UHGV virus genome: UHGV-0036156
DNA length: 33,121 bases
Direction: 5' to 3' (one strand)
Source: a virus
The notes below the pieces were generated by a model. That model was not told the origin of the DNA and searched no databases. It worked only from the letters and a program-made list of their open reading frames with translations. Of the stretch, positions 4,579 to 14,477 are shown in pieces. The stretch's first letter is position 1. Each line of letters opens with the position of its first letter. The position numbers and the translations under genes are program-made.

Positions 4579-4791
4579 ATGATGGTGATAAATATTCACG
4601 ATAGTCTGGGAATTGGTCGGTTAATTAACCTTGATAATGTCAATGTGATGGAATCAACTGTTAACGGTGATGTTATTTTTGAATTTGTTGATGGTCGAAG
4701 GCTGGCTGTTCATGTCGGCAACCATCATCACGCAGAAAATGTGTTTTGTGAACTTAACGAAATCACAAATGCAACGCCCGTTAATCAATAA
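4579..4791 (+). CDS. Small early protein, function unknown
   Basis: 70-aa ORF tightly packed in the early operon; weak GGAGA upstream. Confidence 0.45.
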   Translation: MMVINIHDSLGIGRLINLDNVNVMESTVNGDVIFEFVDGRRLAVHVGNHHHAENVFCELNEITNATPVNQ

Positions 4792-4804
4792 GCAGGAAAT
4801 GAAA

Positions 4805-5074
4805 ATGGCAAAAGTAATCTTTGAATTTAACAATACAGAAAATATTGAGTTTCAGGAAAATGGAGGTTTTGCCGTAAATATGAATGTGCGACTGGAAGAA
4901 TCCTCACCTGAGGACCAGACCGGGCCACATGATGTAATGGCAGGCATCATCAAGAGCATGGCTCCTGAAATCATTAAAAAAGCGACCGAGGAGTTGTTGA
5001 AATCAGCCAGGGAGCTTGGGCTGGAAGCTGAGGGGGAACTATTCAGCTATAACCCAAATGCAGCCAGACATTAA
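4805..5074 (+). CDS. Small acidic early protein, function unknown
   Basis: AGGA 7 nt upstream of ATG at 4805 (ORF track frame 4667..5074). About 89 aa with 16 acidic versus 8 basic residues. Confidence 0.55.
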   Translation: MAKVIFEFNNTENIEFQENGGFAVNMNVRLEESSPEDQTGPHDVMAGIIKSMAPEIIKKATEELLKSARELGLEAEGELFSYNPNAARH

Positions 5075-5094: not shown

Positions 5095-5514
5095 ATGAAC
5101 GTCAAAATCCGAAATGAAATTCAGGCATTAATCCGAATTCAGGAACGCAATAACAACGGTGGTGAATTACGCGAGTTTATTTGCGCCCGGAAAGTTGATG
5201 ATTGTGGTGAAAAGACTTACCTGATTGCTTTCGACCATTACAGCATCTGTGCGCGTTATTGCGGCGAAAGTATATCCCGCGCCATTGCATTTGGCGGTGC
5301 GTTCAACGTGGATTTATGGGAGTACGTCATGGACCGGGAATACATCTGCGCATCAGACCCTGAAGCCCGTGAAATGTGGCAGCGTATCTGGCGCGATTAC
5401 CGGTTAATGGCAAAAGGCTGGGCGCACTGCTGTTATTCCTCGCTTGCCCTGAAAGCGGTTCAGCTATCGCTGCGGCATATTCCGGCATCGCAGCGTGAGC
5501 CTCTGCTGTACTGA
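5095..5514 (+). CDS. Early protein, function unknown, Cys-rich
   Basis: 139-aa ORF with AAGGAA 10 nt upstream; same strand and packing as neighbours. Confidence 0.6.
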   Translation: MNVKIRNEIQALIRIQERNNNGGELREFICARKVDDCGEKTYLIAFDHYSICARYCGESISRAIAFGGAFNVDLWEYVMDREYICASDPEAREMWQRIWRDYRLMAKGWAHCCYSSLALKAVQLSLRHIPASQREPLLY

Positions 5515-5833: not shown

Positions 5834-6358
5834 ATGGCTAAACCAGCAAAACGCATCAAAAGTGCCGCAGCGGCTTATGTGCCACAAAACCGCGATGCGG
5901 TGATTACCGATATTAAACGCATCGGGGATTTACAGCGCGAAGCATCACGTCTGGAAACAGAAATGAATGATGCCATCGCGGAAATTACGGAGAAATTTGC
6001 GGCCCGGATTGCACCGCTTAAAACCGATATTGAAACCCTTTCAAAAGGCGTTCAGGGATGGTGTGAAGCGAACCGCGACGAACTGACGAACGGCGGCAAA
6101 GTGAAGACGGCGAATCTTGTCACCGGTGATGTATCGTGGCGGGTCCGTCCACCATCAGTAAGTATTCGTGGTATGGATGCAGTGATGGAAACGCTGGAGC
6201 GTCTTGGCCTGCAACGCTTTATTCGTACGAAGCAGGAAATCAACAAAGAAGCAATTCTGAATGAACCAGGCGCAGTTGCCGGTGTTGCCGGAATTACGGT
6301 TAAGTCTGGAATTGAAGATTTTTCCATTATCCCGTTTGAACAGGAAGCCGGTATTTAA
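5834..6358 (+). CDS. gam: Gam-like DNA-end-binding, host-nuclease inhibitor protein
   Basis: 174 aa, the length of Mu Gam, at the syntenic position after the early accessory genes. Confidence 0.8.
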   Translation: MAKPAKRIKSAAAAYVPQNRDAVITDIKRIGDLQREASRLETEMNDAIAEITEKFAARIAPLKTDIETLSKGVQGWCEANRDELTNGGKVKTANLVTGDVSWRVRPPSVSIRGMDAVMETLERLGLQRFIRTKQEINKEAILNEPGAVAGVAGITVKSGIEDFSIIPFEQEAGI

Positions 6359-6921: not shown

Positions 6922-7096
6922 GTCAATTGGCTTTGTCCTGCTGGTTAGCACCTGCGGGAACGATGCCTGCGATGCCATACCTGTAACGGAAAGAATCTGG
7001 CCCACGGAGCAGATATGCAGGCAGGTGATGAAACATGTGCAAAAACGTTATCCCAATGAGATTTTTTATTGCGAGGAAGTATTACGAAATGAATAA
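6914..7096 (+). CDS. Possible small secreted or lipoprotein-like protein
   Basis: GTG at 6914 lies 6 nt after GGAGG. N-terminus IKSIGFVLLVSTC looks like a signal peptide with a non-canonical lipobox; five Cys. ORF track frame 6860..7096. Confidence 0.3.
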   Translation: MIKSIGFVLLVSTCGNDACDAIPVTERIWPTEQICRQVMKHVQKRYPNEIFYCEEVLRNE

Positions 7097-7247
7097 CGTA
7101 AACGAAAAGCAGGAATGCCCGACCTGCGGTAATGAAGCCCCTGAATATCTGAAAGAGTGTCCCCATTGTGGCGGGCAGAAATGCAATTACTGCGATATGG
7201 GCGATGACACGGCGTGCATGAATTGTGAAGGTGAACAGAATGAATAA
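7089..7247 (+). CDS. Small zinc-ribbon protein (four CxxC pairs)
   Basis: MNNVNEKQECPTCG...CPHCGGQKCNYC...CMNCEGEQNE, about 52 aa. ORF track frame 7035..7247; the ATG at 7089 is chosen as start. Confidence 0.5.
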   Translation: MNNVNEKQECPTCGNEAPEYLKECPHCGGQKCNYCDMGDDTACMNCEGEQNE

Positions 7248-7551
7248 TGGCGTATTTACAAAATCAGAAGAACTTACGGCCCTGCTGATTGCCGGTGGTT
7301 TACCGGAAAACGAGGTCAACGACTTTGTGGCCTTTGTATATGCCCCGTCTTACGAACAGGCTATTGATGAGGTCATGGCGTACCGACTGGGCATTGTTGC
7401 TGAGTCACTGAGTCCTCACTGGATTATTGAAAATCTCCGCACTATTGCTGATGGCAACGATAAAGTGGCGGCTGTCGCCGCCCTTGATGTGCTGCAACGT
7501 ATGAACCGGGAACTATTCAATCCCGAGTTTCTTTTTAAGAAACGAGGTTAA
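7240..7551 (+). CDS. Early protein, function unknown
   Basis: ORF track 7225..7551; the ATG at 7240 follows GAAGGTGA at good spacing. Confidence 0.5.
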   Translation: MNNGVFTKSEELTALLIAGGLPENEVNDFVAFVYAPSYEQAIDEVMAYRLGIVAESLSPHWIIENLRTIADGNDKVAAVAALDVLQRMNRELFNPEFLFKKRG

Positions 7552-7929
7552 CCACTGTTTGCCGACGTCTGTTACGAGCGTCATCGGGGCGTCGGCAAGC
7601 TCCTGTTTTATACGCTCAAGAATGGGTTTTTGATGTAGTGCTTTCGCAAAATCATGACCATCTTGTGTGAGTCTGACACTGGTGCCTGAATATGAATATC
7701 CGAGGCTTGTCGGGGTGAGACCAATGCTTTTTGCGGTGCCTGTTTCCAGATATCTGTTGCTGATAAAACCATTTTCAACCAGCAACAGAAGATGGAAAAC
7801 CAGCTTCTGATGGCTGTCGCTGTGCCGCTGAGAACGATCCCAGCCGACATCTTCCAGTCGAATGAATGCAGTGTCGGCCTCCAGGAATACATCAAATATT
7901 CTGGCTATCTCGTCATAATCAATTTTCAT
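7513..7929 (-). CDS. Counter-oriented accessory gene (138 aa), function unknown
   Basis: Only sizeable ORF in 7552..7942, antisense to the early operon. AAGGAA 6 nt upstream of its ATG; 3' end overlaps the converging plus-strand gene by 39 bp. Confidence 0.6.
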   Translation of the reverse strand: MKIDYDEIARIFDVFLEADTAFIRLEDVGWDRSQRHSDSHQKLVFHLLLLVENGFISNRYLETGTAKSIGLTPTSLGYSYSGTSVRLTQDGHDFAKALHQKPILERIKQELADAPMTLVTDVGKQWLTSFLKKKLGIE

Positions 7930-7959
7930 ATCTCATTCCTTAATATGAGAGGTGAGCAA

Positions 7960-8511
7960 GTGAATCGCACATCGCTTATTAAATTAATCCATGTCGCCCG
8001 TCGGGAGCTACAACTCGACGACGACACCTACCGTGCCTTTCTGATGCAGAACACGGGCAAAATCAGTTGCCGTGAGCTGACCGTCGCGCAACTGGAGCTG
8101 GTGCTCGATGCCATGAAAGAACGCGGTTTTAAGAAGCAGAATAAACACCCACGCCGTCGCTTTAATGGGCATGTAACGCCCCGCGAAAAGGTATTAAAAA
8201 TCTGGCAGCAAATGGCAGAAGACGGTTTTATTGCCGATGGCAGTGATACAGCACTGGATAAATACGTCGAACGACTGACAGCCAGACGTAATGGCGGACA
8301 GGGTGTTTCCACGCTGGCGTGGTGTCACGGAGAATCGTTACAAATTGTGCTTGAAACCCTGAAACAGTGGCACATCCGCTGTATCCGTGAAGCCTTTTCC
8401 CGTTATGGGCTCCCGTTGCCGGTCAGCCCGTCCGGGCGTGAACTGCGTGGCTATGATGCCATGACAGCAGCTTATGCCCGTGCAAGAAAAACACGGAGAC
8501 TGGCACAATGA
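7960..8511 (+). CDS. GemA-like protein (Mu gp16 family)
   Basis: Begins (M)NRTSLIKLIHVARRELQLDDDTYRAF, resembling my recollection of the Mu GemA N-terminus; immediately upstream of mor. GTG at 7960 after GAGAGGTGAG, or ATG at 7943. Confidence 0.7.
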   Translation: MNRTSLIKLIHVARRELQLDDDTYRAFLMQNTGKISCRELTVAQLELVLDAMKERGFKKQNKHPRRRFNGHVTPREKVLKIWQQMAEDGFIADGSDTALDKYVERLTARRNGGQGVSTLAWCHGESLQIVLETLKQWHIRCIREAFSRYGLPLPVSPSGRELRGYDAMTAAYARARKTRRLAQ

Positions 8512-8897
8512 CGCAGGATTTGTTTGGCGACTTTCAGGATGACAGTATCCTGGCTCATCTTGACAATGAATCCGGGGATACGTCACGATTTCCGGCACTG
8601 CTGGCGGAACTGAACGATGTGCTGCGTCAGGAACTGTCCCGGCTGGGCGTTGAACCTGCGCACTCTCTGGAGATTGTTGTGGCTATCTGTAAACATCTTG
8701 GCGGTGGTCAGGTCTATATTCCTCGTGGGCAGGTGCTGGATTCACTGGTTCGGGATTTACGAATCTGGAATGATTTTAACGGGCGCAATGTTCACGAACT
8801 GGCAATTCGTTATGGTGTGACGTTTAACACTGTCTATAAAGCCATCCGACGAATGCGGCGTATAAAGTATCGTCAGTATCAACCCCCTCTGTTTTAA
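8508..8897 (+). CDS. mor: Mor-like middle-operon transcription activator (Mor/C family)
   Basis: 129 aa, the length of Mu Mor; clear paralogue of the C-like protein at 10257 (shared GG-Q-YIPRG ... FNGRN ... YK-I-R-R motifs); last gene before the early terminator. Confidence 0.85.
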   Translation: MTQDLFGDFQDDSILAHLDNESGDTSRFPALLAELNDVLRQELSRLGVEPAHSLEIVVAICKHLGGGQVYIPRGQVLDSLVRDLRIWNDFNGRNVHELAIRYGVTFNTVYKAIRRMRRIKYRQYQPPLF

Positions 8898-8902
8898 ACA
8901 GT

Positions 8903-8927
8903 AAAGCCGGTTAATCCGGCTTTTTTT
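8903..8927 (+). terminator. Rho-independent terminator at the end of the early operon
   Basis: AAAGCCGG-TTAAT-CCGGCTTT hairpin followed by a run of seven T, 6 nt after the mor stop. Confidence 0.8.
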
Positions 8928-8979
8928 ACGCCCTCAATATTCTGTTGTGACGATAAAACGTTCATTACAGGAGGGCAAC

Positions 8980-9540
8980 ATGCCTGAGTTTTCCCCTGCA
9001 TTCCTTCATTCGCTGAATTTTGTTATACGGCCTGATGTTGAAGGTGGTTACGTTAATGATCCCACTGACCGTGGCGGCGAAACCAAATACGGCATTTCTG
9101 ACCGTCGCGACGGCGTTATTGATGGCAAAACCGATGTTAACGGTGACGGGAAGCCTGATACCCGTATTAAAGATTTAACCCACGAGCAGGCGGCGCAAAT
9201 CTACTGGCGTGATTACTGGCTGGCGGCAAAGTGTAACGAATGGCCTGATGGTGTTTCCTTATTCGTCTTTGATGCTGCCGTTCAGCACGGTGTTAAACGC
9301 GCAATTCAAATCCTCCAGGCGGCAGCAGGTGTTGATGATGATGGCATCGTCGGCAAAAACACTCGCGCAGCCGTACTGCGTGCCGATACTGACTGGCTGC
9401 TGTTGCAGTGTTTCCTGCGTCGTTCCCGCTATTACGCAGGGATTATCAAATCCAGTACCTCGCAGGGGAAATATCTGAACGGCTGGTTTAACCGTCTGGA
9501 TCTGCTCGCCAGCGCCTGCCGGGAGGTTCTGCATGGGTAA
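8980..9540 (+). CDS. Endolysin, glycoside hydrolase family 108 type
   Basis: N-terminal signature RPDVEGGYVNDPTDRGGETKYGI, longer C-terminal region. CAGGAGGG precedes the ATG at 8980; ORF track starts at an upstream GTG at 8947. Confidence 0.8.
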   Translation: MPEFSPAFLHSLNFVIRPDVEGGYVNDPTDRGGETKYGISDRRDGVIDGKTDVNGDGKPDTRIKDLTHEQAAQIYWRDYWLAAKCNEWPDGVSLFVFDAAVQHGVKRAIQILQAAAGVDDDGIVGKNTRAAVLRADTDWLLLQCFLRRSRYYAGIIKSSTSQGKYLNGWFNRLDLLASACREVLHG

Positions 9541-9751
9541 AGGGTGGGATGCGTCCTTTCGGTTTGGCAGACGCGAACGTTTACGACAGGAGGTGTTACA
9601 TCGGGAGGCCGGAGGTCCACCACCAAAGCCAATGGATTACACAGGGCACGATGGCACCCACGGGAGCTATTACATGAAAGGCTGGCAGTCAGTCGATATG
9701 CCAGAAATTATTCACCACTGCCAGCGTTACAGGGAAAAGCATCATGTTTAA
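9533..9751 (+). CDS. Small protein in the lysis cassette, function unknown
   Basis: ATG overlaps the endolysin stop (ATGGGTAA) with GGGAGG upstream; 72 aa, no transmembrane segment. Confidence 0.45.
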   Translation: MGKGWDASFRFGRRERLRQEVLHREAGGPPPKPMDYTGHDGTHGSYYMKGWQSVDMPEIIHHCQRYREKHHV

Positions 9752-10124
9752 GCGTTTCTGTTATTTGTTACCAAATTGTCTGCCGGTCATGTTGCTGGCG
9801 CTGATTCTGATTATCAGCTTGTTTTATGGTTTGCGGGCGGTGCTGTTCTGGAATGCTGCCGTTTTCAGTGTGGCGCTGTGCTTTACCGGCACTATTTTTG
9901 ATGATCTGTCCCGGACAGGAAAAATCCGACGTTATGCTTCTATTAATGCCATTGATTTTCTTGGTGGCCTCGTCGGGTTAAGTCTTTCGGCTATTGCAAC
10001 CGGGCTTTTAGAAGAAGCGCATCAGTTCACGATTTATGCTTTATCTGGCTTCTGTAGCATATGGTTTTGCTTTCGCCTCCATATCTGTCTGCGACGTTCA
10101 GTACCGTCTGGCGCGGAGGCATGA
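9744..10124 (+). CDS. Multi-pass membrane protein, candidate holin
   Basis: 126 aa with three to four hydrophobic segments, immediately downstream of the endolysin. Confidence 0.55.
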   Translation: MFKRFCYLLPNCLPVMLLALILIISLFYGLRAVLFWNAAVFSVALCFTGTIFDDLSRTGKIRRYASINAIDFLGGLVGLSLSAIATGLLEEAHQFTIYALSGFCSIWFCFRLHICLRRSVPSGAEA

Positions 10125-10246
10125 TGTACAGAAGATTCAGTAATGAATGTTCCGGCATGGCTACGTTGCTGATGGTGATGAAGGGTATCACAGTTATTGC
10201 ACTGCTTGCCGTAGTCACGGGGATCTGTCTGTTAGTTTTTCGCTGA
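10121..10246 (+). CDS. Small single-pass membrane protein (lysis accessory?)
   Basis: ATGA start/stop overlap with the preceding gene; about 41 aa with a C-terminal hydrophobic segment. ORF track frame 10061..10246. Confidence 0.4.
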   Translation: MMYRRFSNECSGMATLLMVMKGITVIALLAVVTGICLLVFR

Positions 10247-10256
10247 TGGGGGCAAA

Positions 10257-10667
10257 ATGACAAATCAGCAGGATTTATTTGAACATGATCCGGCTGTAAG
10301 CCAGTTAATGGATCATATCGACAATATACCGGCTCCTGAGCAGGAGGCCCGCTGGCCCCGCGCGCTGGTTGAGCTGGTTGACGTTCTGGAAACAGAACTG
10401 AAACGTCAGGGCGTGGATGATGCACGGAGCATAGCCCGTAAACAGGTGATGTCCTTATCATGGTTCCTGGGGGGGCGGCAGTATTACATCCCCCGGGGTG
10501 ATGCACTTCTGGCAGCGTTGCGGGATGATCTGATTTACTGCCAGTTTAACGGTCGGAACATAGAGGAGCTGCGGCGTGAACATCGTCTGTCACAACCGCA
10601 GATTTACAAGATTATTGCCCGGCAGAGAAAACTTCATTCACGGCGACATCAGCCCGATTTATTCTGA
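10257..10667 (+). CDS. C: C-like late-gene transcription activator (Mor/C family)
   Basis: 136 aa; paralogue of Mor with the same conserved motifs; sits upstream of the late operons. Confidence 0.85.
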   Translation: MTNQQDLFEHDPAVSQLMDHIDNIPAPEQEARWPRALVELVDVLETELKRQGVDDARSIARKQVMSLSWFLGGRQYYIPRGDALLAALRDDLIYCQFNGRNIEELRREHRLSQPQIYKIIARQRKLHSRRHQPDLF

Positions 10668-10678
10668 GTAACAGCAAT

Positions 10679-10698
10679 CAACCGGTGCAGGCCGGTTG
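10679..10698 (+). terminator. Candidate terminator hairpin after C
   Basis: CAACCGG-TGCAGG-CCGGTTG hairpin 10 nt after the C stop, followed by TGTTAATT; the U-tract is weak. Confidence 0.35.
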
Positions 10699-10740
10699 TG
10701 TTAATTAATAATAACCCCGTCTACAAATTCCCCTGAGTTA

Positions 10741-10766
10741 CCCTCCTTTTATTACCGAAGGAGGGT
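10741..10766 (+). promoter_or_regulatory. Hairpin pairing the Shine-Dalgarno sequence of the downstream gene
   Basis: CCCTCCTT - 9-10 nt loop - AAGGAGGG, ending a few nt before the ATG at 10770; the 8-bp perfect stem contains the ribosome-binding site. Confidence 0.45.
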
Positions 10767-10769
10767 TTC

Positions 10770-11198
10770 ATGAACGATTTTAAAAAACGTCTCCCCCGCA
10801 TCATCAGAACGCTTGCCATCGTGGTACTGGCGGCATGTGGTGGCTGGCAGTTGTCCGGCGATGGTGATTCATCGCTGGCTTCTGTTCAGTACCTTCCATA
10901 CACAGATCAGCACGGCGAACTGACTGTTTGCCTTAACCATCACGGTCCTGATATTCAGCAACGCCCTTACAGCTATGGTGAATGCATCATGCTGTTGAAA
11001 GCAGATTTGAAGCCTGTTTATGACACGTTAAATACCCATCTGAACAGGCCACTGACAGAGGAGCAAAAAAATGCACTGGCGGTGTTTATGTTCAGCGCCG
11101 GTTCTGGTGCTGTGCCCGCTCCCCGTAATAATCAGCTGCTGAATGATGATGTGTTACCGGTGCCGGGATTAATGCCGGGTATGTCGTCAGGGCTGTAA
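10770..11198 (+). CDS. Mu gp22-like lysozyme-fold protein (phage lysozyme family) with altered catalytic site, N-terminal SAR or lipoprotein-type signal
   Basis: YLPYTD...TVC...ECxxLLxxDL...ALxxFxFxxGxG aligns with P21 R-type SAR endolysins. N-terminus MNDFKKR + TLAIVVLAAC. Ala sits where the catalytic Glu is expected, and the protein is about 25 aa short at the C-terminus. Confidence 0.75.
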   Translation: MNDFKKRLPRIIRTLAIVVLAACGGWQLSGDGDSSLASVQYLPYTDQHGELTVCLNHHGPDIQQRPYSYGECIMLLKADLKPVYDTLNTHLNRPLTEEQKNALAVFMFSAGSGAVPAPRNNQLLNDDVLPVPGLMPGMSSGL

Positions 11199-11210
11199 AC
11201 AGGAGAGCGT

Positions 11211-11510
11211 GTGGATATTTATTCAGTGCTGACCTACTCGATAGGCAGTGGCAACACCATTGGTGGCATTTTGTGGTGGGCGGTGAGGCGTACATTTGCC
11301 AGTACGGAACGTGTGGAGCAAATCGAAAGCCGTTTAACCGCGCTTGAAACGAAGTGCGAAAACATGCCCAGTGCACAGGATTTACATGCTGTCCGGTTAC
11401 AAACCGCAGAAACCAATGGTGAAGTGAAAGCGATGAACCGGCACATACAGGTGCTGACCCATCAACTGGAGCTTTTGCTCGAAAAGGCGCTCGGAGAGAA
11501 CAACAAATGA
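11211..11510 (+). CDS. Releasin-like membrane-tethered protein (Mu gp25 position)
   Basis: 99 aa with an N-terminal hydrophobic segment (IYSVLTYSIGSGNTIGGILWWAV) and a coiled-coil-like remainder; directly follows the gp22-like gene. GTG start. Confidence 0.6.
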   Translation: MDIYSVLTYSIGSGNTIGGILWWAVRRTFASTERVEQIESRLTALETKCENMPSAQDLHAVRLQTAETNGEVKAMNRHIQVLTHQLELLLEKALGENNK

Positions 11511-11797
11511 TTGACGACATTCTGACGCAGGATCGCCGCCTGGTCATCCTGCGTTCACTGATGGACTGCAATAACGAGGCTAACGAATCCATTTTGCAGG
11601 ATTGCCTGGATGCTTACGGGCATAACGTTTCACGTGATGTGGTTCGTGGTCAGATTGACTGGCTGGCAGAACAGCAGCTTGTCACCGTGGAAAACCTGCG
11701 CGGCTTTTATGTCGTGACGCTGACCTCCCGTGGTCAGGATGTGGCTGAAGGCCGGGCTCGTGTTTCCGGTGTCAAACGTCCACGTCCCCGCTTCTGA
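11507..11797 (+). CDS. Conserved Mu-like protein (gp26 position), function unknown
   Basis: 96-aa ORF overlapping the previous stop, same strand. Confidence 0.55.
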   Translation: MIDDILTQDRRLVILRSLMDCNNEANESILQDCLDAYGHNVSRDVVRGQIDWLAEQQLVTVENLRGFYVVTLTSRGQDVAEGRARVSGVKRPRPRF

Positions 11798-11805
11798 ACG
11801 GAGGC

Positions 11806-12384
11806 ATGATGGACAGGAAAACACGGGGACGGGCTTCAAAAGTGGATTTGCTGCCGGAAAACGTGCGCAAAACACTGCATGAAATGCTGCGTGACAAGGC
11901 AATCCCACAGGCCCGCATTCTGGAAGAAATTAACGCCCTGATTGAAGATGCCGGACTGCCTGATGACATGAAACTCTCCCGTTCCGGCCTGAACCGTTAC
12001 GCGACAAACGTCGAACAGGTAGGCCATAACCTGCGACAGATGCGTGAAATGACGTCAGCACTGACCGCAGAACTTGGCGACAAGCCAATGGGGGAAACCA
12101 CAAAGCTGATTCTGGAAATGGCCCGCAGCCAGCTTTTTAAAGCCATGATGCGGCAAATCGAAAAACCGGAAGATGACGTGGATATTGAACTGCTGAAAAA
12201 CGCCATGCTGGCGGCACAGCGTCTGGAATCCACAGCAATGTCCAGCCACCGGCGCGAGAAAGAGATCCGCCAGGCATTCGCAGAAGAAGCGGCAAACGCT
12301 GTCAGCGAAGAACTGCGCGGGCAGGATGGCATCAGCGAAGAACTGGAGCAGCGTATCCGTGATGTGCTGCTGGGGAAAGCGTAA
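11806..12384 (+). CDS. Putative terminase small subunit (Mu D/gp27-like)
   Basis: 192 aa, helical and charged; positioned upstream of the large terminase as in Mu. Confidence 0.65.
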   Translation: MMDRKTRGRASKVDLLPENVRKTLHEMLRDKAIPQARILEEINALIEDAGLPDDMKLSRSGLNRYATNVEQVGHNLRQMREMTSALTAELGDKPMGETTKLILEMARSQLFKAMMRQIEKPEDDVDIELLKNAMLAAQRLESTAMSSHRREKEIRQAFAEEAANAVSEELRGQDGISEELEQRIRDVLLGKA

Positions 12385-12397
12385 AGGAGAAAATGTA

Positions 12398-12592
12398 ATG
12401 GCTGTTGAAACCAAAGAAAAAACGTCTGCGGAAATTGCCCTGAAACTCAAACCCATCGTCGAAGCGGCGCTGGCTGAGGAGGGCAATATTCATATCGTCA
12501 CAAAAGCCGAATCACTGTATCTGTTAATGCAGATTGTGGTTGGCCCGCGTATCGCGGGCCAGATCATCAGAGAGTCACAAATTAATCAGTAA
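12398..12592 (+). CDS. Small protein, function unknown, in an inserted segment between terminase genes
   Basis: AAGGAG 8 nt upstream of ATG at 12398 (ORF track frame 12326..12592); 64 aa. Confidence 0.5.
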   Translation: MAVETKEKTSAEIALKLKPIVEAALAEEGNIHIVTKAESLYLLMQIVVGPRIAGQIIRESQINQ

Positions 12593-12767
12593 TCATTGCC
12601 TCCAGCAACTGATAAATATGTTTTAACAACTCCCGTTCTGACTTCACATTTTGATCAGAACCGGCAAGACACGCTGGCTGTTTATTCGTATTCATGCCAG
12701 CGATAACAAAGTCACTTGCTATTTTTGCAATCTCAATTTTTTGGTCAATGGTCAGCTTTTCTTTCAT
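12582..12767 (-). CDS. Counter-oriented small protein (61 aa), function unknown
   Basis: Minus-strand ORF with AAGAGG 5 nt upstream of its ATG and a TATAAA -10-like element about 30 nt further upstream; local AT-rich composition. Confidence 0.5.
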   Translation of the reverse strand: MKEKLTIDQKIEIAKIASDFVIAGMNTNKQPACLAGSDQNVKSERELLKHIYQLLEAMITD

Positions 12768-12821
12768 AGCAACCTCTTTTTACTGATTAAAGCCTGAAAA
12801 TTTATACCGGATTTTTCACCT

Positions 12822-14477
12822 GTGAGCACCAAAGAAAGCAAACTTAAAGCCCTTCATGCGCCCCGCAAAATCGACCTGCGTAAGGAAGCCGAATTGCTTG
12901 GCGTGAATATCGTGACCGATATCGGGGAAGCACAGCCCCGCAATGAACCGGTTTTTCTGGGCTATCAGCGCCGCTGGTTTGAGGATGAAAGCCAGATTTG
13001 CATTGCTGAAAAATCCCGTCGTACCGGTCTGACATGGGCCGAAGCGGGCCGCAATGTCATGACGGCCGCAAAGCCGCGTCGCCGTGGTGGTCGCAACGTC
13101 TTTTATGTGGGTTCCCGTCAGGAAATGGCGCTGGAATACATCGCCGCCTGTGCCCTGTTTGCCCGCGCCTTTAACCAGCTGGCAAAGGCTGACGTCTGGG
13201 AGCAGACCTTCTGGGACAGCGACAAAAAAGAAGAAATCCTCACCTACATGATCCGCTTTCCGAATAGTGGATTTAAGGTGCAGGCGCTTTCAAGCCGCCC
13301 GTCTAACCTGCGTGGTTTACAGGGGGATGTGGTGATTGATGAAGCGGCATTTCATGAAGCCCTGGACGAACTCCTGAAAGCGGCCTTTGCGCTCACCATG
13401 TGGGGTGCCCGCGTGCGGATCATATCGACACATAACGGCGTCGATAACCTGTTTAACCAGTACATTCAGGATGCACGCGAGGGGCGCAAGGATTACAGCG
13501 TTCACCGTATCACGCTGGACGATGCCATCGCTGACGGGCTGTACCGGCGTATCTGTTATGTTACGAATCAGCCGTGGTCACCGGAAGCGGAGAAAGCCTG
13601 GCGTGATGGCCTGTACCGGAACGCGCCGAACAAAGAGAGCGCCGACGAGGAATACGGCTGTATTCCCAAAAAATCCGGTGGCGCTTACCTGTCCCGTGTC
13701 CTGATTGAAGCTGCCATGACACCCGCGCGGGATATCCCGGTTCTGCGTTTTGAAGCCCCGGACGATTTTGAATCGCTGACACCGCAGATGCGCCACGGTA
13801 TCGTTCAGGACTGGTGTGAACAGGAGCTGCTCCCGTTGCTCGATGCGCTGTCACCGCTCAATAAACACGTACTGGGCGAAGACTTTGCACGCCGTGGCGA
13901 CCTGACGGTGTTTGTGCCGCTTGCCATCACTCCAGACTTACGCAAACGCGAATGTTTCCGCGTGGAGCTGCGTAATGTGACCTATGACCAGCAGCGACAA
14001 ATCCTTTTATTCATTCTGTCCCGTTTGCCCCGTTTTACCGGCGCTGCATTTGATGCCACCGGTAACGGCGGTTATCTGGCAGAAGCCGCCCGTCTGATTT
14101 ATGGCCCGGAGATGATCGACTGTGTGAATCTGACCGCATCCTGGTATCAGGAGTGGATGCCAAAACTGAAAGGCGAGTTTGAAGCGCAGAACATCACGAT
14201 TGCCCGGCACCAGACCACACTTGATGACCTGCTCCACATCAAGGTGGACAAAGGTATTCCGCAGATTGATAAGGGGCGCACAAAAGATGAAGGCGGTAAA
14301 GGCCGACGACATGGCGACTTTGCCGTGGCGCTCTGTATGGCTGTCAGGGCGTCTTATATGAATGGTTTTGTTATCGACGAGGACAGCATACAGGCGCTGC
14401 CACCACGCCACCGTGGTGATGATGTTGATAACGATGATTTTGATGATTATCACCAGTTTGAACGAGGGGGCTGGTAA
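12822..14477 (+). CDS. Terminase large subunit (Mu E/gp28-like)
   Basis: 551 aa with an ATPase Walker B-like VVIDEAAF and a C-terminal nuclease-type region; precedes the portal gene. GTG start. Confidence 0.9.
   Translation: MSTKESKLKALHAPRKIDLRKEAELLGVNIVTDIGEAQPRNEPVFLGYQRRWFEDESQICIAEKSRRTGLTWAEAGRNVMTAAKPRRRGGRNVFYVGSRQEMALEYIAACALFARAFNQLAKADVWEQTFWDSDKKEEILTYMIRFPNSGFKVQALSSRPSNLRGLQGDVVIDEAAFHEALDELLKAAFALTMWGARVRIISTHNGVDNLFNQYIQDAREGRKDYSVHRITLDDAIADGLYRRICYVTNQPWSPEAEKAWRDGLYRNAPNKESADEEYGCIPKKSGGAYLSRVLIEAAMTPARDIPVLRFEAPDDFESLTPQMRHGIVQDWCEQELLPLLDALSPLNKHVLGEDFARRGDLTVFVPLAITPDLRKRECFRVELRNVTYDQQRQILLFILSRLPRFTGAAFDATGNGGYLAEAARLIYGPEMIDCVNLTASWYQEWMPKLKGEFEAQNITIARHQTTLDDLLHIKVDKGIPQIDKGRTKDEGGKGRRHGDFAVALCMAVRASYMNGFVIDEDSIQALPPRHRGDDVDNDDFDDYHQFERGGW

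Follow-up and report, generated by a model that had tools for sequence, protein, structure and literature searches.

The bor gene of phage lambda lies backwards and is expressed in the lysogen. Overlapping exclusion genes that are transcribed in the lysogen, olg1 and gene 10, have been described in the B3-like (Mu-like) phage Fc02 (PMC9936078). Phage Mu itself carries a backward gene, gene 15 (Mup15, NP_050619, 88 amino acids (aa)), which is located on the minus strand at 7896-8162 (L006 1897-2163), overlaps gene 14 at its end and has its start 70 nucleotides (nt) from gemA. Here we examined a similarly placed open reading frame (ORF) in a 33,121-nt stretch of viral DNA, UHGV virus genome UHGV-0036156 (the window, by which the whole stretch is meant). 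The ORF is located on the minus strand between a gp14-like early gene and gemA, and from the letters of the window it had been predicted to be a moron expressed in the lysogen, possibly of the superinfection-exclusion or abortive-infection type. The coordinates of this ORF, referred to below as the backward gene, and of the surrounding features are collected in Table 1.

The backward ORF is a genuine gene under purifying selection. Its length alone is not beyond chance, since the window has other antisense ORFs of 124-147 aa, and the case rests on conservation. A word-indexed search returned 29 homologues with 30-99% identity and an exhaustive profile search returned about 450 clusters at 50% identity (E<=0.001), nearly all of which were stand-alone proteins of 125-150 aa. 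A lack of coding conservation in close relatives would have spoken against the original prediction; the protein was in fact conserved, with a ratio of nonsynonymous to synonymous substitution rates (dN/dS) of 0.03-0.2 (Nei-Gojobori, at least eight independent pairs). The numbers of synonymous versus nonsynonymous differences were, for example, 37 versus 6 between loci L008 and L035, 39.5 versus 13.5 between L050 and L052 and 20 versus 7 between L032 and L034. The alternative that the ORF is a non-functional antisense reading frame or an annotation artefact could draw on the chance antisense ORFs of similar length and on the failure to find a promoter (see below), but it is highly improbable and effectively refuted by the dN/dS values. 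Strong purifying selection was seen in many independent lineages, the family is a broad one of stand-alone proteins of about 135 aa, the folded model is confident, and the start codon and the Shine-Dalgarno sequence are conserved. There is also no competing gene on the plus strand in 7552-7959, and the backward ORF fills 400 base pairs (bp) that would otherwise be free of genes.

The local architecture agreed with what had been described from the sequence, namely a 138-aa minus-strand ORF with a good ribosome-binding site (AAGGAA with 6-nt spacing) that converges on, and overlaps by 39 bp, the upstream plus-strand gene. The ATG of the ORF is at 7929-7927 and an in-frame TGA is located at 7935-7933, with one codon between them, and therefore the ORF has no alternative start. 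A Shine-Dalgarno-like purine run, as read from the sequences, was found 3-9 nt from the start in most homologues of other lineages. The same 39-nt overlap was present in loci L008, L029, L039, L059 and L061, where the protein identity is 46-60%, and the spacer to gemA was near-identical in L007, L029 and L061 despite 46-64% identity of the backward protein. The distance to the gemA start, which had been put at 14-31 bp, was essentially right: it is 30 nt to the GTG at 7960 and 15 nt to an in-frame ATG at 7945. The GTG is also the start chosen by PGAP, and in alignments with relatives it coincides with their ATG at the head of MSRTSLIKL. An imperfect inverted repeat of 15 nt (7940-7954 and 7968-7982; 80% complementary) flanks the gemA ribosome-binding site and start codon and could occlude both in the early mRNA.

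The window is a Mu-like (Muvirus-type) E. coli prophage. The 1.6-kb region 7000-8600, which contains the backward ORF and gemA, was 99.4-99.8% identical to prophages in E. coli SE11, PEC422 and TUM9757. In the annotation of the SE11 prophage (99.4% identical), which adjoins hisP, all genes from ner to mor are on the plus strand with the backward gene as the sole exception, and the claim that it is the only counter-oriented early gene was thereby borne out.

The original prediction had treated the gene as a possible one-off insertion. This did not hold, since Mu gene 15 has the same place and orientation. The same gene occupies this slot in SfMu (gp16), and in D108 we observed an unannotated minus-strand ORF of 119 aa in the slot (L005 1372-1731; NC_013594 7856-8212). 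Mup15 and the D108 ORF share the PHROG 32893 domain and cluster together, and the Mup15 family comprises PHROGs 8747, 38610 and 32893. Its members (Mup15, the D108 ORF and ORFs of 76-116 aa from distant Mu-like phages) have the core D-x-A-G/A-F-x-x-A-G-N-L-M-x-x-L-x-x-K-G-V-I. The dN/dS of this family was 0.2-0.4, which indicated purifying selection. At least 433 GemA loci were found in IMG/VR. In a sample of 79 GemA-bearing viral contigs from this database, 15/79 carried a Mup15-family ORF and 3/79 a relative of the backward gene of the window, all of them backwards and with the start within about 70 nt of gemA; no credible backward ORF was seen in most of the remaining contigs. Homology between the two occupants was considered and rejected, since BLASTP E values between the window family and Mup15 or the D108 ORF were 0.06-0.6 and the hidden Markov model of the window family missed both ORFs. 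A family-against-family comparison with hhalign gave a probability of 12.5% over a single 15-residue 'LLvENGlIS' motif, so that homology was not demonstrable. The backward arrangement is thus shown to be a property of the slot, which at least two unrelated families occupy backwards. Our literature search returned nothing relevant on Mup15 or on antisense transcription in Mu prophages.

The slot is variable in content. DNA homology between the window and SfMu or vB_YpM_3 ends at 7491 and resumes at 7961, and homology to Mu and D108 ends at 7249 and resumes at 7961, at the gemA start. Compared with a MIN10-type prophage, 7407-8006 was about 98.5% identical and the flanks 75-90%. The converse was seen in L029, in which Gam and MuB are 100% and GemA 97% identical but the backward protein only 60% and the gp14-like protein 53%; more generally, the identity of the gp14-like protein to its relatives rises and falls together with that of the backward gene. 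These sharp shifts of identity at the edges indicate that the cassette and the tail of the gp14-like gene are exchanged by recombination between prophage lineages. At the same time, position and orientation are kept in Mu-like phages of E. coli, Salmonella, Citrobacter and relatives with gene copies of 46-64% identity, with GemA identity as low as 42% and the exact 39-nt overlap in most lineages. The check for an insertion against related prophages therefore gave a divided answer: the gene is accessory and sits in a variable slot delimited by recombination, but it is not a one-off, as the slot is kept down to 46% identity. By these comparisons, the gene is an old resident of the slot that is still mobile. 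In Kluyvera Mu-like phages it lies between gemA and mor, still backwards. A Salmonella Mu-like locus (L011 4982-5386) was observed to have an extra backward gene of 134 aa between gemA and mor, beside the usual gene; it matched no PHROG and is unrelated to DUF2513. The gene is rare: only 5/5426 complete E. coli genomes carry it, and these are 5 of the 45 that matched the region 7000-8600. Among the isolated phages of the phage collection with a homologue, none was Mu-like, and no locus compared had a second DUF2513 copy.

The protein had not been recognised when the ORF was first described; it is recognisable as a DUF2513-like protein with a match to PHROG 585 and a predicted winged helix. The identical SE11 protein is named 'DUF2513 domain-containing protein' by RefSeq/PGAP. 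The PHROG 585 match (E 2.2e-31) aligns residues 1-137 with positions 1-127 of the 128-position profile. With Pfam DUF2513 (PF10711) the window protein scored 16.5 bits (E 0.011, residues 38-112), below the gathering score of 29.6. PF10711 was matched by 20/22 relatives (best E 3e-6), and some homologues have precomputed PF10711 hits. By these profile scores the window protein is best regarded as an outlying DUF2513 relative and not as a formal PF10711 member. DUF2513 and PHROG 585 are both families of unknown function, and no mention of DUF2513 or PF10711 was found in literature searches. NCBIfam had no match for the backward protein, Mup15, the D108 ORF or the gp14-like protein. A sequence-profile search of PDB gave no meaningful relative (best E 0.16), and a search of the BFVD viral structures gave nothing below E 0.05, all hits being uncharacterised.

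An AlphaFold2 model built with the family alignment had a mean predicted local distance difference test (pLDDT) score of 87.6. In it, a winged-helix core whose beta wing is enlarged is preceded by one N-terminal helix and followed by three C-terminal ones. The model thus has the winged-helix core of MarR/PadR-type proteins, and the protein is predicted to be soluble and acidic with a winged-helix fold of the MarR/PadR/TubR type, although Foldseek comparisons with MarR/PadR/HxlR-type or TubR structures gave only E>=0.02 and template modelling scores of 0.3-0.5. As in those proteins, the N- and C-terminal helices of the model could form a dimer interface. In contrast to them, the backward protein has no sequence-family match (no Pfam MarR or PadR hit), a degenerate acidic helix-turn-helix region and an acidic overall charge. 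The helix-turn-helix portion (residues 25-40) is acidic and the least conserved part of the family, while K42 and R86 are conserved. The most conserved motif of the family alignment is R-L-T-x-x-G-H-D-F-A, which may be the counterpart of the strand-to-helix junction located after the wing of MarR-type proteins. The family as a whole is acidic (median isoelectric point (pI) 5.4; 78% of members below 6). No transmembrane segment or lipoprotein signal was found in the backward protein, which has a maximum 19-residue Kyte-Doolittle mean of 1.08, no Cys and an acidic N-terminus, and we infer that it is neither an enzyme nor a membrane exclusion protein.

Early transcription had been expected to read antisense through the gene, and the arrangement of the operon supported this. 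The spacer before gemA holds two ribosome-binding sites only and leaves no room for a gemA promoter, and the operon terminator, which is of the Mu/D108 type, lies after mor; because of this the early transcript would have to cross the backward gene antisense. From the arrangement of genes, the backward gene may be expressed in the lysogen. A weak, activated or unconventional leftward promoter is required under any hypothesis. Several homologues outside phages have strong promoters. The GC hairpin after the backward stop codon is probably incidental; it falls in the conserved Ala codons (AAVAA) of the gp14-like gene, and these codons also occur in phages without the cassette.

Between the backward gene and gemA, further elements were observed in other lineages. 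Some Mu-like lineages have a conserved mini transcription unit 50-250 nt before their gemA-like genes (L059 ~4770-4903; L030 ~5300-5499; L040 4330-4359 and 5461-5489, in two copies; the minus strand of these loci is the phage forward strand). It is made up of TTGACA/G, a 17-nt spacer ending in TGTGA, TCCAAT, about 60 nt and a strong intrinsic terminator (e.g. AAGCCCCGCCCTGTGCGGGGCTTTTTT). The unit matched no Rfam family and does not occur in the window; it resembles a small RNA or a terminated leader and is reminiscent of lambda pR'-6S-tR'. Mu-like loci of Salmonella and Citrobacter (L008 5931-6000; L009-L011, L035, L036 and L048) have on the phage forward strand a terminator-like hairpin, GGCGGTGCTGACACACCGCC followed by TCTTTTTTT, between the backward gene and gemA and 12 nt before the gemA start. 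Unless bypassed, this hairpin would stop early transcription before gemA.

Homologues were also found in contexts other than Mu-like phages. A lambdoid prophage of Serratia symbiotica has the homologue backwards in the interval from antiterminator Q to the holin gene. Coliphage Chlobot has it co-oriented, near xis and int. In marine contigs (L014 2899-5106; L015 and L016) a homologue with 41% identity precedes, by 147 nt and in the same orientation, a type I cyclic-oligonucleotide-based antiphage signalling system (CBASS), which comprises a Cap15-like effector with two transmembrane segments and a cyclase; PDC-S19 and toxin-antitoxin (SymE/antitoxin) genes are nearby, in what is a defence island. 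The strong promoter region of this marine homologue is flanked by the inverted repeat TGACTTGTGAC / GTCACAAGTCA. In Alcanivorax a NucS-like protein of the PDC-S02/S11 type is encoded two genes from the homologue. No partner gene was constant across the contexts examined, and the other neighbours vary. These neighbourhoods might mildly suggest, through guilt by association, a link to defence islands or to local regulation.

The explanation that we favour, with confidence that is about evenly balanced, is that the backward gene is a selected accessory gene which is silenced by antisense transcription during lytic growth, is made in the repressed prophage and benefits the lysogen in trans. The early transcript from Pe would run on through the slot to gemA and mor, so that the backward gene would be read antisense and presumably silenced in lytic growth. 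Its expression would come only from a leftward promoter, weak or of an unrecognised kind, within the 5' part of gemA, and the protein would most plausibly be made in the repressed prophage. There the winged-helix domain could act in trans by binding nucleic acid or a protein partner, and the lysogen might benefit through, for example, interference with incoming phages or tuning of gene expression. Neither the search for defence-family matches nor that for a membrane segment supported the exclusion or abortive-infection role that had been suggested. This explanation is compatible with the conserved position and orientation beside gemA over 46-99% identity, the recurrence of the slot, the rarity of the gene and the obligatory antisense read-through, as well as with the CBASS operon that follows the marine homologue in a defence island. 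The Q-holin interval is a classic moron site, and the backward homologue found there was also counted in its favour.

Several results weigh against it. On the minus strand of 7000-8600 no sigma-70-like site (at least 9 of 12 positions) was found, and in a position weight matrix scan of the 500 nt upstream of the gene the best score was 6.65 against a median of 7.29 for the window background, although such sigma-70 consensus scans cannot exclude weak or activated promoters and no search was made for a Mor/C-type site. In Mu-like phages with the gene beside gemA, promoter scores were at or below the 75th percentile of the local background, with the Kluyvera type at the 89th, and the search for a downstream terminator gave only the weak hairpin listed in Table 1. 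Outside prophages the homologues often share the orientation of their neighbours and lack a constant partner; this frequent co-orientation indicated that orientation is not intrinsic to the family. No family of the PADLOC-DB v2 defence models was matched at E<=1, there was no NCBIfam or PDB sequence match, and the searches found no paper on DUF2513/PF10711.

An unlikely alternative is that the gene encodes a phage regulator, a MarR/PadR-like DNA binder acting near the 5' region of gemA, which would autoregulate, damp gemA-mor or time the switch from early to middle expression. The winged-helix fold with its MarR-like strand and 'LTxxG' helix junction would suit such a function, as would the conserved K42 and R86 at usual DNA-contact positions and the tight, ancient linkage to gemA. 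The leader with its own promoter and terminator, present between the gene and gemA in some lineages, would give such a protein something to regulate, and the marine homologue, directly 5' of the CBASS operon, is placed as a local regulator would be and has a strong promoter bracketed by an inverted repeat. However, the helix-turn-helix itself is the least conserved part and acidic in a family whose median pI is also low, and there is no conserved operator-like palindrome, only short and possibly chance repeats around two start sites. In addition, the gene is absent from Mu, D108, SfMu and most GemA-bearing phages, and the family also occurs far from gemA, in the Q-holin interval and in int-proximal regions of lambdoid phages.

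Two further possibilities have to be considered. We think it rather improbable that the region 5' of gemA is a dedicated antisense-gated slot for unrelated backward genes that are expressed in the prophage only and shut off by convergent Pe transcription, with the winged-helix occupant being a new lysogeny-specific factor. Mup15-family or DUF2513-like genes would then be held backwards there with a fixed tail-to-tail overlap, and the winged-helix occupant could, for example, be a regulator or sensor through which gemA-mor is restrained or competing phages are excluded. Still more doubtful is a lytic-phase protein, expressed from a Mor/C-type or non-canonical leftward promoter and serving, through binding to a host protein, as an acidic factor for host takeover or anti-defence. 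The missing sigma-70 consensus would fit an activator-dependent promoter, and the protein is acidic, small and soluble like many phage inhibitor proteins, but its expression would face strong convergent early transcription. The backward arrangement moreover recurs in an unrelated type of prophage, which fits expression uncoupled from the lytic cycle better.

Table 1. Features of the early region of the window around the backward gene.
Feature	Position	Strand	Details
Gam	5834-6358		early gene
gp14-like upstream early gene	7225..7551	+	PHROG 1988, function unknown; PGAP start at 7240
Weak terminator-like GC hairpin	7467..7482	-	31 nt after backward stop codon; poor T tract
Variable cassette	7492..7959		about 470 bp; delimited by DNA homology breakpoints
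Backward protein-coding gene	7513..7929	-	138 aa, 15.7 kDa, pI 6.2; predicted DUF2513-like winged helix, PHROG 585 match
Tail-to-tail overlap of backward ORF and gp14-like gene	7513..7551		exactly 39 bp
Divergent spacer between backward gene and gemA	7930..7959		30 nt; only two back-to-back ribosome-binding sites; gemA site GAGG 7949-7952
Shine-Dalgarno AAGGAA (plus-strand TTCCTT)	7936..7941	-	6-nt spacer TGAGAT to ATG 7929; read from sequence
gemA	7960..8511	+	Pfam GemA E 1e-31; divergent from backward gene
mor	8508..8897	+	Pfam Mor E 4e-33; last gene of early operon
Early-operon intrinsic terminator	8903..8927	+	AAAGCCGGTTAATCCGGCTTTTTTT, directly 3' of mor

The rightward gene order of the prophage is repressor, ner, the transposase A and B genes, Gam, small ORFs, the gp14-like gene, gemA and mor. 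The position of mor as the last early gene follows Mathee & Howe 1990 (as cited in PMC9936078), and the terminator behind it has the same sequence as the annotated rho-independent terminator of the early operon in D108. The prophage was observed to have two genes for Mor-family activators and two lysozyme-type genes (window 8947-9540 and ~10257-11198; SE11 annotation, L002 10981-13199), with a glycoside hydrolase family 108 (GH108) gene directly after mor and a second glycoside hydrolase gene after the C-like gene. A second small minus-strand ORF (61 aa, window 12582-12767), hypothetical in SE11, is located just 5' of the large terminase gene. It was considered as a relative of Mup15 and rejected, being unrelated to that family. 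Within it, TTGACC-16-AAAAAT (12748-12721) was the sole promoter-like site on the minus strand in 8600-13200. No Rfam family was matched in the window or in the related loci.

The gene was already annotated, its family is large and of unknown function, and its architecture is one that Mu also has with gene 15. What is added is a comparison across phages in which a backward slot recurs and is filled by either of two families, and the finding is a modest one. It places Mu gene 15, which has been annotated yet never characterised, in a recurrent backward slot before gemA, and the slot is thus a defined place in which to seek prophage-encoded lysogen functions in transposable phages. Should expression of the backward gene be confined to the lysogen, it would offer a simple example of how the lytic transcription of a phage can switch off a gene of its own prophage, and it would also provide the first function for the DUF2513/PHROG 585 family with its roughly 450 clusters.

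Compared with the classical morons and exclusion genes (lambda bor, lom and rexAB; P2 old, tin and fun), the gene of the window is likewise an optional gene within a phage operon, with the distinction that it lies backwards. The idea of a moron was accordingly upheld in part: the gene is optional and present or absent at a defined junction, being absent from Mu, D108, SfMu and vB_YpM_3, but the promoter-terminator pair of its own that a classical moron has was not detected in the window. The exclusion genes of Fc02 differ in that they are located beside the repressor and not before gemA, and they are unrelated in sequence to the window gene. The Mup15 family differs in size, with 76-119 aa, and in extent, as the DUF2513-like family is broad whereas Mup15 and the D108 ORF each have only near-identical relatives in the databases; the Mup15 family nevertheless extends to Mu-like phages with GemA only 44-51% identical. 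The Mup15-family genes have the same slot and orientation as the DUF2513-like gene, overlap the early gene before them at its 3' end, and likewise encode small, soluble proteins of unknown function that are under purifying selection.
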